Shown: in pieces, positions 9,806-18,800 of the stretch
Numbering within the stretch: position 1 is the stretch's first letter
Layout of the letters: the number at the start of each line of letters is the position of its first letter
Notes under the pieces: model-generated
The model's input: the letters and a program-made list of their open reading frames with translations, nothing else
Database searches by the model: none
What the model was told of the DNA's origin: nothing
Program-made: the position numbers and the translations under genes
Assembly (NCBI GenBank): GCA_964634525.1
Contig: CAZWLI010000018.1
Coordinates: 1 to 41,288, forward strand
Direction: 5' to 3'
DNA from: an uncultured Candidatus Peribacteria bacterium
GTDB taxonomy: Bacteria > Patescibacteriota > Gracilibacteria > JAUYGZ01
Length of the DNA: 41,288 nucleotides

Positions 9806-12800
9806 AAGGAGTGATGAAAGATTTTGAGAGAAACGAAAATGAAGGCTGGAGAGCATCCACCAATTGTCTTATGGATGGGATAAAGGATGTTGGGGAAGAA
9901 GGAAGTTGGTCGACTCTTTGGAAAAGGTTATTCCATGGAACTCGATTGGACAAAGTATGCTGATCGGGAAGCGGAACAGTTCGAAGAATTTCAAAATCCT
10001 CATCACTGACGTTCTTACGACTCACAGACTTTTTTATCCTGCTGACAGCCAGATTAAGCTGCTCTTCTCGAGTATCTGAATTCCTGGTGAGAACATCAAG
10101 AGAGGCCTTATAGCTTTCCATGAAGGCGTCCCGAATCGGACTATTTCCCATTGCGAGAAGCACTGATTCGAAAGAATGCACTTTGATACTAGCATGAGGA
10201 TATTTTTCCCCAAGCATTTCTTTTACCGATGCGACTTTTTCAGCCGGTACAAAGACTTCAGCAGGAGGAAAAGGTAAGGTCATACTTCCATCCTGGAAAT
10301 GATCGGGCAGAGTAGCCTCTGCAGCCAACGGTCCTATTTTTTGTCGGTCATGCATAATTTTCACTGGAATTTGTTGAGATTTTCCAGGGTCCAATTGCAG
10401 TCCGATGATAACACCAAAAGGAAGCTCTTCTGCACCTCCCTTGACTTTCTTTCTTTCTGCGATTAAAGCATCAAGCGTTTGTTTCTCTCGCTGAAGCTCT
10501 TTCAGGAAATCATTTGGTGATGAAGCCATCAATTTTCTTGAGAGATCAGAGCCAACTTGTAAAAAATTATCAATAAGAATCCTCGTCCGAAGAGACCGAG
10601 CTTCCAATTGGGCGGTAGTCAAAAGTCTTGGTTCGAATACGGTTTGTTTGACCTGGGCGTAGGCAAAAGCAGTGCCTGCACCAGCCTCTCCCAAGCCAAC
10701 AAATAAATTCGGACTGGCAGCTTGTCCGCCAAACTTTGCCCCCTCTCCACCTTCCGGATTCAGACCTGCTTCCTGAAGTGTTTTTGCGGATTTCAATGCT
10801 CCTTCACGAAGTATTCCTTGCAAAGCAACGGAATTCGTCCCATGGCTTACGATGGGAAAAAATGCTGATTCTGATTGGACATATTGCAGAGCTTCCTCAA
10901 GGATTGAGACTAATTGAGTATCTTGCTGAACTCGAGCTGCCTGAAGCTTTTTTCTTAAGGTCTGAGTAAGTTCCTGGCGTTCGCGGGGGGAGATTTTGGT
11001 CGTCACCAATCGACCTTGTTCGACATTGGCATGATTATACATATTTTCTTCGAGAGCTCTCAACTCAGCATCTGGCAGAAATTCCATGCCCCTTGATAAG
11101 GCTCTTACTTTTTTGAAAGCCGTTTGAACTTTTTCTCTGACGGTAAAATACCGCAAATTTTTATCCATTTGTCGTAAATTCCATAAATCTTGCTGTTGCA
11201 CACCTTTTATATCTCCTTCCACAAATCCCTCAAGGATATCGAGATCTTCAGGATTTTTTTCAAATGCTTTTCCTACCCTTTCATACGTATGCGCAGCAAT
11301 TTGTGGACGAGATGGATCGGGAAGCAATTTAGCATTTCCTTCTCCGTACAACGCAAGATTACTGACCGCGTCATGGTACTTGATCAGCCGAATGATGCGC
11401 TCCGCTTCTGCTTCAGAAAATCCTAATTTTTGCAGACTTCCATCTGAAAGAAGCCGCTCAGCTTCATGCAAAGGATGCGCTGGATCTGGACTGATTTTTC
11501 CTTTTTTTCGCTGATCCAATGTTCCGGTTTCTTTTGCCATATCATGAAGAAGCGCAACCATATGAGCTATTCGTTGATCAGCTTTTGAGAGAGACTGATA
11601 TTTTTTTGTCTTCCTCATTTCAAAAAGAACCTTAATCATATGAACCCCGAGCTTATAATCATGAAAGGCGTGCTGGTAAGCTCCTTCGCCGATAAGCTTT
11701 TGCCATTCTGGAAAGAACTGTGAAAATTCTGCCGTAAATCCTTTTACGAATGCGTCAAAATGTGATGTTTCTTCTTTGCTTCGCCCAGCATAAGCAATCA
11801 ATTTAAGAACGCTATCAATATCTTCAGGACCTGTATCCATTTCCAAGAATCCTTCCAACTGTGTTCTTTTTTCGGGAGCCAGAAGACGATCGAGTTCAGC
11901 TTCCAAAGTGTGCAAGCGATCCACCGCAGCTTGCTGATGACGAGTAAAGCCCTCGATATCGGCAATGGTCTCGCCTTCTATAAGTCGGCGCTCAAATTCG
12001 GCAACTTCTGCTTTGGCTTTTGCGATTTCTTTCTCTAAAGTCGCTCGATTCTCTTCAGCCACGGTATCACCGCCCCTCGTCCTCCTTCCCCCATCAGCAT
12101 GTTCTCGATACCTCTGAACACCATCGTAGGCTTCCTTCGCATGAGATAGTTTCCAGAAGTTTGCAACGTCAATGCCACCCTGTGCAAGCGCTGCTTCAAA
12201 TTCAAGACTCTTTTCGATCAAACCAACCCTTCGAAGACCGAAATAGGTTGCGATCATTTCATCTGCCACTTCAGCATTCATCTCGGGGTGTTCCTTGAAA
12301 AGTGCTTCCACCGGATCCTGACCGGCAGCGACCGTGACGCCCAAATTTGCTGCCAACGCCTCCAAAAATGTTCGAGCATTCGGGTCAAGGTTCCGAAGAA
12401 GTGTTTTTTTCAGGGCCGAGTAGCCATCACTGAGCTTACTGATGACCAGAGCTCTCTTCTCCGCCGACAATTGATTGAAGGTTCGATGGACGTTTTCATG
12501 AGTGAGGAGTTCTCGATAAATACTCACCCATGAACGTTCGGGATGGAATTCACGATACGATCGAATACCTTCGATGTTGAAGATAATGGTTCCATCCTTC
12601 TTCACAAAAGCCAGTTCATGTGCCAAGCCCCTACCGGATTCATCTTGCGTTTGCTCATCGATAAACTGATCTCTTGTCTTTCCTTGTACTTTGGGGTCCT
12701 TTCTGCTTACAAGATCATCATAGACAAGACCCAAATACGTAAAGGCATCTTCAGCTTTCACTTGTTTTCTTCCTTCCGGCATACCTCGAATCAGAGAAGA

Positions 12801-15800: not shown

Positions 15801-18800
15801 CCCAAATTTCCCATTGGCCGCATCGTCCATAATTCTGGAAGAACGGTCGGGCGCATAGTTTGGTGTATGGATGATGGGGAGACCATTTAACTCTTTTCTC
15901 AAAAATGAATCAGAAGCTATTTCCGGAGCGTCCACCACAATGGCTCCCAGATCGATGATCACTGCTTTACCGTCCTTATCGACCAACACATTGGCCGGCT
16001 TGAGATCATTGAAAAATATTCTTTTTTTATGAAGGGCTTGCAAACGTTCTGCCAAAGAGATCAAAAATATCAGTAATTCTTCTGGCGTTTTTGGTCGGAA
16101 TTCAGCCATAGATTTAGCGGTGCCATCGGCAGAGCGCACGAGGTCGAAAGCAACGCTTCTTACTTTTTTAATGCGTTTTTCTCGATTTTCCGGACCTTTT
16201 TCCTTTTCTGTAAGCCCGCCCGAATATTCGAACCCATAAACCTGGATATAGCCTTCCTTGAACTCCCCATCCTTTTGTTTTTCCATGAAGTAATCAGCCA
16301 CCCCCCTTTCGCGAATTGAACCAGGACCTTCCTTTAAAAAATCTTTAATCACGACTTCGTGAAAATTCCCCGATTCATCCATGGCAAGAGCGTGAGATAC
16401 CTTCCCAATACCACCTTGCCCCAATACCTTACCCCGGTAGAACGTCATCGACTTGCCGTATCGATTGGTGATGTTGGCTTTATCTCGGAAAAATAAACCC
16501 AGAAGGTACGCTCGAGTATCTTCAGGGCTGAATTGAGAACTTGTGGAGAGAACACCGACCATTTTGTGTTCTTCGCTGGTGAAAGGCCGAGCTTTATACT
16601 TATCCAACACATCAAAAAGTTGACTCAACGATTTTGCTCCAAACATCCTCACAATTGCCTCGATCCTTTCCTCAAATGAAATTAATTTCGTTCCATTTTC
16701 GACAAGTCCATTTGTGGAAAGGAAATCGTCAAAGAGCTGCGGGAATAGCTTTCGCAATACCGGACCATAGAGACTCTCCAATTCATGGATGCGTTTTTGA
16801 ATCTCAATCAGATTTCCTGCCAACCGTGTTTCGTAGATCAATCGTGATCGAAGTATTTCAAAACTCTTTCTGGTAACAGGATCGATGGAGGTCGAACCAT
16901 TTTGCTCAGCTTGGAGAAGTTGTTCAAGCCTTGTCAAATATTCTTGAATTTTATGGGCATCATATCGATTTTCCTTTGTGTTCAGAAGGTCTTCAAAAGA
17001 ATGTTGAAAATGAACACCTTGACCTAAAAAGGTCATAACATTTCGCAGAATGTCATAAGCCTCCTTATTGCCCTGTTCGGCAAGCAATTGCAATTTCTCA
17101 AGAAGTTTGAAGAATTTTTCGCGATGAACTCGATGTTGAGGCAAATCAAGAGTTTCCGGAGTAATTTCCTGAGCTACTAAACTGACAATTTCTTTAAAAA
17201 TATTTTCAAACAGGAGGCTCTCTCGAGATGAACTCTTCTCATTTGCTTTATGATAGGTATCAAGAAAAGAAGTGAAATCATTCAAGAACAAAGGAACATC
17301 GAAGATATCTCTGACAAAAGTGGCGATGCCACCCGAGTCGGAAGCGCCATGTATTGTTGATGGCGGAGTTGATGGCAAAGGAGCGCTCGAATAGTCAACC
17401 CCCACACTTGCCTCAAAATTCCGATAATAGCTTCCTCGAATATCACCCACGGATTTAATTTTCTGCAGTTCTTTTTGGACCTCAGCATCACTTAAATTCG
17501 GATTCTGGCGTTTGATGATCAAGATAAAGAAACCATCCACCAGAGCGGCCTTGTCGGCAGGAAGTTTCCCGGCGACCCAATCGGCAATCGTTTCCTCAAA
17601 AATTTCCCGTTGGGTCGGATTATTGAGATTGAGTCCCAAAAATTTCGCAAGAAAGTCTCGGTGAGCCGGATCCATGGCCCGTTCAAGACGATGGCCAAAT
17701 TCATGGCGAATAAATGCTTCAAGAAAGGCCCGCCTTTCACTGAATGCAAAAATTCTTCGAAGGCTTGATTGATCTTCATTCTTTCCTCTTCCCCGATCGA
17801 CCATGTCCGGAAATCTCAAAAGCTCGGCCTGAAGCTTTGCGATGGCGGCAGCGCGTTCTTTCGGATCTTTCGGGAGATCGGTGAGTTTTGCGGCAAAATC
17901 AGGGTCATCGAGTCGTTTTTCAATCTCGGCTGCCAAATCTTTTGCGCTCATCTTTTCCACAGCCTGAACACCGGTGACTTCACTTCTTTTGATGACGATT
18001 CCACGGCCGACATCGCCTTCTGCACTGTCTCCTTCCCTGAATGCTTTGACTTTGGCAACATCTCCCTCAGCGATAAAAATCTCCCGCCCATCGCTCATAT
18101 AGATTTTCACCCCTCCCAAAATTTCCGTCTGCCTTTTGTCGATATCATGCCTCATCTTTTCCGTATTCACATAAATCGTACCGGTGAGAAGATCAACGAA
18201 GCCGTATTTGTCGAAAGTTTCAATGCCGCTCTTCCCACTCAATTCTCTCGCTTTGGCTTGAAATTCTTTTTCGGTGGCAATATTGACGCGATTCTCCTTG
18301 AGATCGCGAAGCTGGCTTCGCAGATCTCCTTCTTGACCCGCGAAAATCCTATTTTTTGGAAGTGAGGCGAGTTCGCTTTCCAGCTTGGCGACAAGGAGCA
18401 CGGTTAAAGAATTCTTTTCTTTGGAAGCGATTCGCAAGGTCTGCTGAAGTGACTTTACAGCCTCTTCTTGTTTCGAAGTGCCTTGTCGCGATTTTTTGCC
18501 CTCCTCGATTTGTCGTTGAATTTCAATGATGGTGACTCTCAGATCTTTCAGCTCATTGGTGAGCACGTCCAAATTTGCCTTCAAATCCGGCGCAGTCGCT
18601 TCCGGTCCGTGAGGGATAATGCCTCCCAATATCTTTCCAGCAAGAGCCATGCCAAAGGTTGTCACGCTTGCATTGACGAAGCGATTGACGATGTCTTCCT
18701 TGCTGCCCAAGGTCGTCCCATGGCCGCTGAGTTGGCTAGTGAGTTCATCAAAACCCATCATGGTCAGGATGGACGAAAGGTGATGGAGGGTTTTATTCGA

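Follow-up and report, generated by a model that had tools for sequence, protein, structure and literature searches.

The window analysed here, a stretch of 41,288 nucleotides from an uncultured Candidatus Peribacteria bacterium, contains a giant gene whose product carries three HExxH strings. A first-pass annotation had read these strings as parts of a three-fold module, each HExxH unit being followed by an enzyme (kinase, kinase, HD), and had likened the units to minimal zincins. Do the strings mark a real metal-dependent domain, and what would such a domain do in a protein of this kind?

The giant protein and its genomic setting

The open reading frame has 3867 codons counted from the first ATG. 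Its probable start is M46 (ATG at 21264-21266), which lies 1 base past the stop of the upstream gene and gives a protein of 3822 aa. This is the size named in the first-pass annotation and the length of P0001, the database entry of this protein. The main features are as follows.

23192..31174, minus strand: upstream giant gene A, 2660 aa; its homologue is the giant gene upstream of the relative P0003 (BLASTP E 4e-45)
21268..23283, minus strand: upstream gene B, 671 aa, a member of the conserved gene order A-B-C
9798..21401, minus strand: giant open reading frame
21102..21158, minus strand: N-terminal hydrophobic helix, aa 82-100, preceded by a basic stretch
18342..20651, minus strand: conserved N-terminal region, aa 251-1020, with a second conserved hydrophobic helix inside and a long helical stretch after it
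17358..18263, minus strand: unit 1, HExxH domain type A, aa 1047-1348
16482..17357, minus strand: conserved region between unit 1 and kinase 1, aa 1349-1640
15702..16481, minus strand: kinase 1, aa 1641-1900 (motifs LGQGGIG, VVIKDF, NDLKPAN, IIDLG)
14199..15188, minus strand: unit 2, HExxH domain type B, long form, aa 2072-2401
13422..14189, minus strand: kinase 2, aa 2405-2660 (Pfam Pkinase E 7.9e-18; motifs LGEGGFG, VAIKEF, NDLKPQN, IIDIG)
12780..13421, minus strand: linker from kinase 2 to unit 3, aa 2661-2874, collinear with the kinase-to-domain linkers of the relative P0002
11979..12779, minus strand: unit 3, HExxH domain type B, compact form, aa 2875-3141
11142..11861, minus strand: possible HD-type phosphohydrolase region, aa 3181-3420, below threshold (LLHDMAKE at 11529-11552)
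9801..11141, minus strand: C-terminal region, aa 3421-3867, with a weak Tpt1/KptA-like match at aa 3483-3540

An N-terminal hydrophobic helix was found by Kyte-Doolittle scan in this protein and in all full-length homologues, and here it is read as a putative signal anchor. The gene belongs to a conserved cluster, where it comes after gene A, whose product is giant, Cys-rich and apparently exported. The surrounding genes are cellular and include S-layer-homology proteins, type IV pilus-like genes and a sugar epimerase; the setting is not a phage or a conjugative element. No RTX repeats, cysteine protease domain, Rhs, HINT or other known trafficking domain were detected in the protein.

Both kinases are of the Hanks type. 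Kinase 2 begins about 5 residues past unit 2, which is the one place where an enzyme follows an HExxH unit as proposed. About 290 aa of conserved sequence stand between unit 1 and kinase 1, and the HD region behind unit 3 is sub-threshold (Pfam HD E 0.025; PHROG tRNA nucleotidyltransferase E 0.024). This region had no PDB sequence match, and it is only weakly assigned to HD.

Two subtypes of a new domain family

The giant protein contains exactly three HExxH strings, against 0.13 expected from its composition (Poisson P(>=3) = 3.4e-4). They lie on the minus strand where the first-pass annotation had placed them: HEFGH of unit 1 at 17691-17705 (aa 1233), HENTH of unit 2 at 14835-14849 (aa 2185) and HENVH of unit 3 at 12486-12500 (aa 2968). 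Relatives are few. In 1.84 billion representative proteins, searched exhaustively with HMMER, six family proteins were found, and a metagenome scan added a seventh. Most of the seven are giant, reaching 5,776 aa, and one comes from a Candidatus Altimarinota metagenome-assembled genome. Type-B domains in these proteins directly precede GGDEF and HD-like regions as well as kinases, and relatives of the giant protein carry GGDEF domains between the cassettes.

The domain consists of a beta-hairpin, an alpha-helix with HExxH(R) and, beyond a helical insert that varies, another helix with an invariant Glu (E-x-x-A). The hairpin follows the pattern hydrophobic-V-x-x-x-G-x-I-aromatic-x-N-x-E-x-hydrophobic-R. 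These elements are located in the three units as follows.

18150..18200, minus strand: unit 1 hairpin, FVDLLTGTIYVNTEKMR, aa 1068-1084
17958..18113, minus strand: unit 1 small beta-barrel insert, aa ~1097-1148, carrying YMSDGREIF
17688..17705, minus strand: unit 1 HEFGHR, aa 1233-1238, with H, E, G, H and R invariant
17577..17597, minus strand: unit 1 EETIADW, aa 1269-1275, on helix 213-227 of the AlphaFold model
14982-15029, minus strand: unit 2 hairpin
14832-14849, minus strand: unit 2 HENTHR
14523-14543, minus strand: unit 2 EELVAYY, aa 2287
14304-14372, minus strand: unit 2 tail, LSHAREAY...GRARGG
12561-12608, minus strand: unit 3 hairpin
12483-12500, minus strand: unit 3 HENVHR
12243-12263, minus strand: unit 3 DEMIATY, aa 3047
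12069-12149, minus strand: unit 3 tail, LSHAKEAY...RRTRGG

Alignments were built from 5 type-A and 10 type-B sequences. Every one of the 15 copies in the seven proteins keeps HExxH and one downstream helix-borne Glu. Among the ten type-B copies, at roughly 24-46% identity, the only invariant residues are A, H, E, H, F, G and E, so that H, E, H and E make up four of the seven. In type A, with alignments of four and five sequences, HE.GHR and E..ADW are invariant. The alignments show that the conserved core of the domain is formed by the HExxH strings, all three of which belong to one new family, divided into subtypes A (unit 1) and B (units 2 and 3). The strings are not chance occurrences; they rank as the best-conserved residues of a genuine, repeated domain.

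The third zinc ligand that the first-pass annotation could not verify now has a strong candidate in this invariant Glu, found in EETIADW, EELVAYY and DEMIATY. For unit 1 the candidate is E1270, and D1274 completes the E-x-x-A-D motif. The motif in unit 1 and its orthologues is E(T/S/A/N)(I/V)AD, with ENIAD in the relative P0004; this ExxAD is what we take to be the classic Glu-zincin signature. In type B the Asp is replaced by T or Y, and the distal Glu lies 75-100 residues past HExxH, which is a long spacing.

A DG(R/T)(E/I)IF strand had been proposed ahead of HExxH in all three units, and the strings are indeed present (DGREIF at aa 1104, DGRIIF at aa 2129, DGTIIF at aa 2936). The unit-1 string, however, is outside the conserved core, because the beta-barrel insert that carries it is missing in two of the five orthologous unit-1 copies (P0003 and P0004). 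What truly corresponds in unit 1 to the DG..IF strand of units 2 and 3 is FVDLLTGTIYVNTEKMR, which is kept in all five. Weak Hfq/Sm/YgdR-like Foldseek matches of unit 1 (E about 1) are assigned to the insert.

Predicted structure and searches against known families

The AlphaFold models are confident for type B (unit 3, pLDDT 82.2, pTM 0.75) and type A (pLDDT 74.7). In the type-B model, an N-terminal helix and three short strands stand ahead of the HExxH helix (residues 79-97), and the distal Glu is within helix 164-179. The 10-residue blocks over these two helices have averages of 87-96, which place them among the model's highest. The tail at residues 214-240 has a pLDDT below 50, yet its RRT motif is conserved. 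The zincin-like core has been described as an N-terminal helix, three short strands, the HExxH helix and then the Glu helix past variable inserts (PMC5512222), and the predicted secondary structure of the HExxH domain fits this description.

Foldseek against PDB and viral structures reached a best E of 0.67, with no metallopeptidase among the top 50 matches listed. Pfam zincin matches were all sub-threshold (E >= 0.036), with two of nine copies matching DUF922 (E 0.06) and one copy each matching Peptidase_M43, Reprolysin_3 and Peptidase_Mx. PDB sequence and profile searches with the domains returned no metallopeptidase. The domain had no HMM match with the phage N4 metallopeptidase, and hhalign against a nine-sequence profile of that enzyme returned P values of 0.026 (type A) and 0.094 (type B) at a probability below 2%, with all three motifs in order in the type-B alignment. 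Since none of the Pfam, PDB, Foldseek and N4-profile matches is significant, the zincin fold stays a candidate.

Internal duplication

Self-alignment detects a repeat between units 2 and 3 (aa 2103-2398 versus 2906-3138; 26% identity, E 4.5e-11) and, on the same diagonal, between kinases 1 and 2 (aa 1653-1884 versus 2417-2639; E 6.6e-22). The downstream block said to be shared by units 2 and 3 is found in both, as LSHAREAYKGQEY at aa 2344 and LSHAKEAYDGVQRY at aa 3085. A cassette of kinase, linker and domain is also collinear with both cassettes of P0002 over about 780 aa, at 35% and 32% identity. At the level of sequence, these repeats show that units 2 and 3 and the two kinases go back to a kinase-linker-domain cassette that was duplicated in tandem. 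The repeats and the collinearity with P0002 make this cassette the evolutionary unit, so the proposed three-fold module of HExxH unit and then enzyme was in the wrong phase.

Unit 1, with the anchoring N-terminal region on one side and the enzyme array on the other, is not included in the repeat found by self-alignment, as it has no significant similarity to units 2 and 3 by BLAST or shallow profile comparison. With family profiles, hhalign aligns the HExxH helices of types A and B (E 4.5e-4, probability 33%), and the type-B HMM matches a unit-1 orthologue across the hairpin and HExxH helix (14.5 bits, E 3.5e-6 with four targets). Unit 1 is an older, divergent paralogue of units 2 and 3, tied to them by a modest link at the profile level only.

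Comparison with known systems

In SprT, WLM and DUF45 proteins, the third ligand is a His a few residues past HExxH. The domains described here share with them a small size and a G-x-I-x-x-N strand shortly ahead of the HExxH helix. The comparison fails because no His is conserved past the motif here; none of the Pfam models of these families matched either, and the SprT/WLM/DUF45-like identity suggested earlier is not supported. The distal E-x-x-A-D/E gluzincins include neprilysin of M13 (ENIAD), M48 peptidases, minigluzincins, anthrax lethal factor of M34 and MtfA of M90 (EFFAE). Like these, the present domains have HExxH on one helix and a Glu, here a candidate ligand, on a later E-x-x-A-(D/E) helix; they differ in having no Pfam, PDB or listed Foldseek match to any of these families and, in type B, in the T or Y for Asp.

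The MARTX toxins release their effector domains through an embedded cysteine protease domain. For polymorphic toxins, pre-toxin peptidase domains and enzymatic effectors released by an embedded protease are reported (PMC3482391). A large exported protein with an array of effector enzymes and an embedded protease, putative in our case, is common to these systems, whereas the putative protease here is a metalloenzyme and is repeated.

The first-pass annotation knew of no described protein with repeated metalloprotease-plus-kinase cassettes. A conceptual precedent exists in the 'polyvalent proteins' of phages and plasmids, in which one to five zincin-like peptidase domains, proposed to process these proteins, lie among kinases, GGDEF domains and ADP-ribosyltransferases (Iyer et al. 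2017, PMC5512222). Shared features are HExxH-plus-Glu domains among unrelated enzymes, very large polypeptides and variable insertions separating the two helices. The motif order is also shared with aa 2130-2448 of the phage N4 virion RNA polymerase (YGWTNFDDKTIYL..HELVH..NEFMAWG versus FVKKDGTIIFN..HENVH..DEMIATYFG in unit 3). In contrast to the polyvalent proteins, the giant protein has a putative N-terminal signal anchor and sits among cellular genes.

Possible functions of the HExxH domains

The reading that we prefer, tentatively and at somewhat less than even confidence, is that a secreted multi-enzyme effector contains a new domain resembling Glu-zincins, which probably serves self-processing. 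Zinc would be bound by the two His together with the distal Glu, and the motif Glu would act as general base, which is Glu-zincin (gluzincin) chemistry. The giant protein would be a Sec-exported, N-terminally anchored polypeptide. Kinases and cyclases require ATP or GTP, which are absent outside cells, and thus the enzyme array probably works inside another cell. That cell would be the host of an episymbiotic bacterium. In cis, the HExxH domains would cleave the polyprotein at the tails behind them, which are conserved but structurally disordered (RY..H...RRT.GG is the candidate cleavage tail of type B). Cleavage would release the array from its anchor and split the enzymes apart.

The same active-site evidence would serve metalloproteases that act in trans as effectors on host-cell proteins with no self-processing. 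Two divergent subtypes could then mean two substrate specificities, and zincin-like domains of conflict systems can be effectors themselves (PMC5512222). We regard this as unlikely, however, as several copies interleaved with other enzymes, and a conserved motif in the disordered tail directly behind each copy, suit processing better. We also doubt that the domain is a non-peptidase, binding metal or using its His and Glu otherwise as a kinase regulator or docking partner, or as a new-fold hydrolase. A confident model without a structural neighbour among zincins, the joint inheritance of the type-B domain with a kinase as one cassette and the absence from type B of the Asp of the classic E-x-x-x-D signature speak for such a role. 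Against it, the motif Glu, a general base that mere metal binding does not need, is invariant in 15 of 15 copies, type A has the full HExxH plus E-x-x-A-D signature, and type-B domains are not confined to the neighbourhood of kinases.

It is quite improbable that the protein stays in its producer as a membrane-anchored cytoplasmic signalling scaffold regulated by proteolysis through the HExxH domains. Kinases, GGDEF and HD are an ordinary bacterial signal-transduction repertoire, and the topology was derived only by hydropathy scan and positive-inside rule. Nevertheless, homologues begin with a short, signal-peptide-like N terminus, the gene lies in the cluster behind the apparently exported product of gene A, and 12-17 kb for one signalling protein would be unlikely in a small-genome symbiont. 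Functionless chance motifs in helical linker repeats are scarcely credible. No known family is matched, but 0.13 strings are expected by chance, and the retention of motif and distal Glu in every copy while most other positions vary already contradicts this explanation. If self-processing is correct, the HExxH domains would serve to divide the giant protein into its individual enzymes.

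The giant gene and its reading frame

The kinase/HExxH giant protein is encoded by the last gene of an A-B-C cluster, in which it is preceded by a second giant gene (A) and a shorter upstream gene (B).

Genes of the A-B-C cluster in the window
23192..31174 (-): giant protein A, 2660 aa, first gene of the A-B-C order
21268..23283 (-): protein B, 671 aa, between A and giant C
9798..21401 (-): giant ORF (C), 3867 codons counted from the first ATG

Codons 1-45 of the mechanical ORF (21264-21401, (-)) overlap the 3' end of the upstream gene. The entry in the public protein library, P0001, begins at M46. 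Since the M46 codon (ATG, 21264-21266) lies one base past the stop of the upstream gene and the library entry starts there, the true length of the giant protein is likely 3822 aa. The position of this start also suggests translational coupling to the upstream gene. Many Gracilibacteria use a genetic code in which UGA is read as Gly. This code was considered and rejected here: neither the 11.6-kb nor the 14.4-kb giant ORF has a TGA in frame, and TGA serves as the stop codon of 7 of the 19 window ORFs. The standard genetic code applies.

A small family of giant proteins

Word-indexed homologue searches with unit 2, with unit 1 and with a nine-sequence alignment of the HExxH domains found no relatives. 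An exhaustive HMMER search of 1.84 billion representative proteins returned six family proteins, and a metagenome/genome scan queried with a closer four-sequence alignment added a seventh. The family is tiny, so its general importance is limited for now. No prior description of it was found in the literature searched.

Members of the kinase/HExxH family
P0001: 3822 aa; giant ORF of the window
P0002: 4792 aa; metagenome-assembled Candidatus Altimarinota genome, contig locus L001
P0003: 5776 aa; locus L005
P0004: 5266 aa; locus L006
P0005: 1034 aa; gene start 22 nt from the end of a 3.9-kb contig, may be N-terminally truncated
P0006: 188 aa; possibly a fragment
L002 ORF: 3981 aa; metagenome contig

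Candidatus Altimarinota lies within the Patescibacteria group. Every full-length member has an N-terminal hydrophobic helix. According to local HMM mapping, the order in P0001 is N-terminal region, type A HExxH domain (unit 1), conserved region, kinase and type B domain (unit 2), followed by kinase, linker, type B domain (unit 3), HD-like region and C-terminal region. The relatives combine the same parts and have as many as three or four kinases, a single type A copy, one or two type B copies, and GGDEF domains. In the homologues at L001 (P0002 aa ~2580-2695), L005 and L006, a GGDEF domain of the diguanylate cyclase type comes after a type B domain, and a second conserved block (GEFKSINETMGHTHGDTF) follows it. 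The giant protein of the window lacks both.

The repeated cassette

Only three HExxH strings occur in the giant protein, against 0.13 predicted by composition (P(>=3) = 3.4e-4). They are HEFGH (17691-17705, aa 1233), HENTH (14835-14849, aa 2185) and HENVH (12486-12500, aa 2968), and all the strings quoted in the first-pass annotation lie where it had placed them. That annotation proposed a module repeated three times, each copy consisting of an HExxH unit followed by an enzyme domain (kinase, kinase and HD). In a window-by-window self-BLAST of the giant protein, the off-diagonal matches fall into two families. One joins the kinases (aa 1653-1884 versus 2417-2639, E 6.6e-22), and the other joins units 2 and 3 (aa 2103-2398 versus 2906-3138, E 4.5e-11). 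The repeat was thus recovered for units 2 and 3, but unit 1 shows no similarity to them by BLAST, nor by a two-sequence profile. The kinase and HExxH matches share one diagonal, with an offset of ~760-800 residues. This indicates a tandem duplication of a cassette of ~770 residues, in the form kinase 1-linker-unit 2 followed by kinase 2-linker-unit 3. The second cassette of P0001 is collinear with two cassettes of P0002 over about 780 residues (35% and 32% identity), and the first is collinear with P0002 at 26% identity across 889 residues. Together, the tandem cassette and its counterparts in P0002 identify, at the level of sequence, a kinase and then an HExxH domain as the evolutionary unit. 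The HExxH...E domain is inherited together with the kinases as a cassette, in the reverse of the order first proposed.

Two further candidate repeats were rejected. A degenerate type B copy was considered for the stretch that separates unit 1 from kinase 1, and its hhalign probability was 0.1%. A repeat upstream of the two kinases (aa 1600-1652 versus 2349-2416) has identities mostly in the kinase N-lobe, and its more upstream part is weak.

Enzyme domains and the C-terminal region

Kinase 2 matches Pfam Pkinase with E 7.9e-18, and kinase 1 is its paralogue by the self-BLAST match. Both retain the Gly-rich loop, the VAIK Lys, D-L-K-P-x-N (the catalytic D-x-K-x-x-N) and D-x-G. By these motifs, the two enzyme domains are Hanks-type Ser/Thr protein kinases. 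An NCBIfam search of the giant protein matched the kinases only. The HD domain placed after unit 3 in the first-pass annotation is a weak assignment. LLHD and YHD strings are present, and the region has weak matches to Pfam HD (E 0.025) and a PHROG tRNA nucleotidyltransferase (E 0.024). The Pfam score of 15.3 bits is below the cut-off of 22, and no PDB sequence match was obtained. Neither the HD-like region nor the C-terminal region was found in the relatives by local HMM mapping.

The C-terminal region (9801-11141, (-)) has a weak match to Tpt1/KptA at aa 3483-3540 (E 0.07) and no PDB sequence match. Proteins of the Tpt1/KptA family adopt the ADP-ribosyltransferase fold. The adjacent gene, which is convergent with the giant gene (8445..9476, (+)), encodes a clear ADP-ribosylglycohydrolase (E 2.8e-55). 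These two could form a putative pair of toxin domain and antidote.

Relationship between type A and type B domains

The first-pass annotation aligned the units through a DG(R/T)(E/I)IF strand, with DGREIF as the counterpart in unit 1. This assignment fails for the core of the domain. In an alignment with four orthologues, YMSDGREIF of unit 1 sits in an insert of ~50 residues (aa ~1097-1148; window 17958-18113, (-)), which is present in three of the five orthologous copies and missing from P0003 and P0004. The insert forms a small beta unit in the AlphaFold model and is the probable source of the Foldseek matches of Hfq/Sm/YgdR type obtained for unit 1, all of which are weak (near E 1). The strict pattern DG[RT][EI]IF is seen three times against 0.0007 expected by chance, and a looser D-G hairpin pattern is present in both kinases too. 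Accordingly, a generic hairpin motif may have been used again in the insert, or part of the protein may have been duplicated internally.

The element kept in all five type A copies is instead the hairpin FVDLLTGTIYVNTEKMR (aa 1068-1084), which resembles YVTPDGRIIFHMEKLR of unit 2 and FVKKDGTIIFNIEGIR of unit 3. An HMM of units 2 and 3 matched the unit 1 orthologue in P0003 with 14.5 bits (E 3.5e-6 for four targets), and the alignment takes in both the hairpin and, beyond a long insert, the HExxH helix. In hhalign, the type A and type B family profiles were aligned at their HExxH helices (E 4.5e-4, probability 33%). These two matches argue with moderate strength that type A and type B are distant paralogues.

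A conserved HExxH...Glu site

HExxH is invariant in all 15 domain copies. Among the 10 copies of type B, which have roughly 24-46% identity to unit 3, the only invariant columns are A, H, E, H, F, G and E. Four of these seven are the HExxH residues and a distal Glu (E3048 in DEMIATY, E2288 in EELVAYY). In the five type A copies, HE.GHR and F.E..ADW are invariant. Classic gluzincins carry an E-x-x-x-D signature, such as ENIAD in neprilysin, and we take the type A motif E(T/S/A/N)(I/V)AD to be this signature. In the AlphaFold models, HExxH lies within an alpha-helix (79-97 in type B, 165-193 in type A), and the invariant Glu lies on a helix downstream (164-179 in type B, 213-227 in type A).

The third metal ligand, which could not be verified from the first reading, now has a strong candidate in this distal Glu, as judged from sequence conservation. 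A His ligand finds no such backing. In SprT, WLM and DUF45 proteins, to which the domains had been likened, the third ligand is a His shortly past HExxH. Neither subtype has a conserved His after the motif, and neither matches those Pfam families, so that likeness was abandoned. Because of the conservation in both subtypes, the HExxH...E site is very probably functional. Its prediction as a metallopeptidase is favoured with less assurance.

Fold models and comparison with known zincins

AlphaFold was run with the family alignments as input and gave pLDDT 82.2 and pTM 0.75 for type B, and pLDDT 74.7 and pTM 0.64 for type A. The type B model begins with strand 2-4, helices 7-20 and 31-39, strands 52-54 and 60-63, and helix 64-73. 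The HExxH helix (79-97, motif at 89-93) then leads through three inserted helices to the Glu helix (164-179, Glu 169). Blocks of 10 residues on both catalytic helices average 87-96, among the highest values of the model. In zincins, by definition, a sheet of three strands and an N-terminal helix pack against the HExxH helix, and the zincin-like core comprises three strands, the N-terminal helix, the HExxH helix and a Glu helix past variable inserts (PMC5512222). DSSP assigned three short strands and an N-terminal helix to both models, in an order compatible with this core.

The models were thus usable, but the zincin fold suggested for these domains was not demonstrated by structure comparison. 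Foldseek against the PDB and a viral structure set gave a best E of 0.67, with no metallopeptidase among the top 50 matches listed. Matches to the zincin clan of Pfam were all sub-threshold (best E 0.036-0.16). They included DUF922 in two of nine copies (E 0.06), and M43, Reprolysin_3 and Peptidase_Mx in one copy each. PDB sequence searches with the HExxH domains found no zincin, and PHROGs gave no match. The metallopeptidase of phage N4 was compared because it shares the motif order (YGWTNFDDKTIYL..HELVH..NEFMAWG). An HMM search of the HExxH domains against the N4-type domain gave no match. In hhalign against a profile of nine sequences from Schitoviridae phages, P was 0.026 for type A and 0.094 for type B, with probability <2%. 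All three motifs of type B were in register in this alignment, with poor statistics. Kinship with the N4 enzyme was rejected as unproven, with the single sequence and then with the nine-sequence profile. The HExxH domain has a confident predicted structure, but no relative of it could be detected in Pfam, the PDB or the viral structure set. It is either a zincin that has diverged strongly or a domain of novel fold with an HExxH...E site.

Gene neighbourhood

The A-B-C gene order is the same beside P0003 (L005 1-27331) and P0004 (L006 1-25801). The A proteins (2660 to >3150 aa) are Cys-rich with long helical stretches and have no Pfam match, and that of the window matches protein A of L005 with E 4e-45. 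The B proteins (671-840 aa) are barely similar to each other. The neighbours in the window include S-layer-homology proteins, the ADP-ribosylglycohydrolase, a sugar epimerase, a transporter and pilus-like genes.

Other features of the window
5..733 and 1915..5310 (+): two S-layer-homology-domain proteins
6555..8072 (-): 505-aa ORF without a Pfam match, downstream of the giant gene, just past the ADP-ribosylglycohydrolase gene
36276..41031 (-): run of pilin-like (FTLLEILVAI-type N termini) and T2SS-F/PilC-like genes

Type IV pilus genes are common on candidate-phyla-radiation cell surfaces (PMC8080830). The 505-aa ORF has 31% identity (tblastn E 5.7e-21) to the second ORF downstream of the P0002 gene (L001 18364..19368, Altimarinota).

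A possible self-processing polyprotein

A conserved motif, RY..H...(G)RRT(R/Q)(G)(G), lies directly after the type B domains (12069-12149 and 14304-14372, (-)) in a tail that is disordered in the AlphaFold models. Candidate roles are a cleavage site and a phospho-acceptor site for a basophilic kinase. Type A also has a conserved tail behind it, but a different one (NYQADVGVDFQ). In the proposed mechanism, the giant protein would be exported, its HExxH domains would cleave it in cis at the tails behind them, and its nucleotide-dependent enzymes would act inside another cell. The same self-processing logic has been proposed for the zincin-like domains of polyvalent proteins (PMC5512222). A role of the HExxH domains in self-processing is a tentative prediction.

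By analogy, the giant protein may work in the manner of a multi-effector toxin or polyvalent protein. As a class, polyvalent proteins are products of phages, prophages or conjugative elements and are delivered with the DNA of the element. The giant protein differs from them in lacking a mobile-element context, in having a predicted signal anchor and in giving no match to the N4-type profile. No phage or conjugation genes were seen among its neighbours in the window. Unlike MARTX toxins, it has neither RTX repeats nor a cysteine protease domain.

The giant proteins of candidate-phyla-radiation predators have so far mostly been described as surface or adhesion proteins (PMC8080830). The present family looks like a dedicated enzyme-delivery protein, with eukaryote-like kinases here and nucleotide cyclases in the relatives. 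The fullest version of this idea, which we consider rather doubtful, is that types A and B are Glu-zincins of a new, self-processing clade. A Sec-exported polyprotein of 3,800-5,800 residues would be cut up by them into kinase, GGDEF-cyclase and HD effectors, and episymbiotic or predatory candidate-phyla-radiation bacteria (Gracilibacteria and Altimarinota relatives) would deliver these to host cells. The repeated putative protease within the giant protein would make the idea of host-directed effectors testable. If true, the family would represent a cellular equivalent of the polyvalent proteins of phages and of MARTX toxins, its genes lying in a conserved cluster of three together with that for a second giant surface protein.
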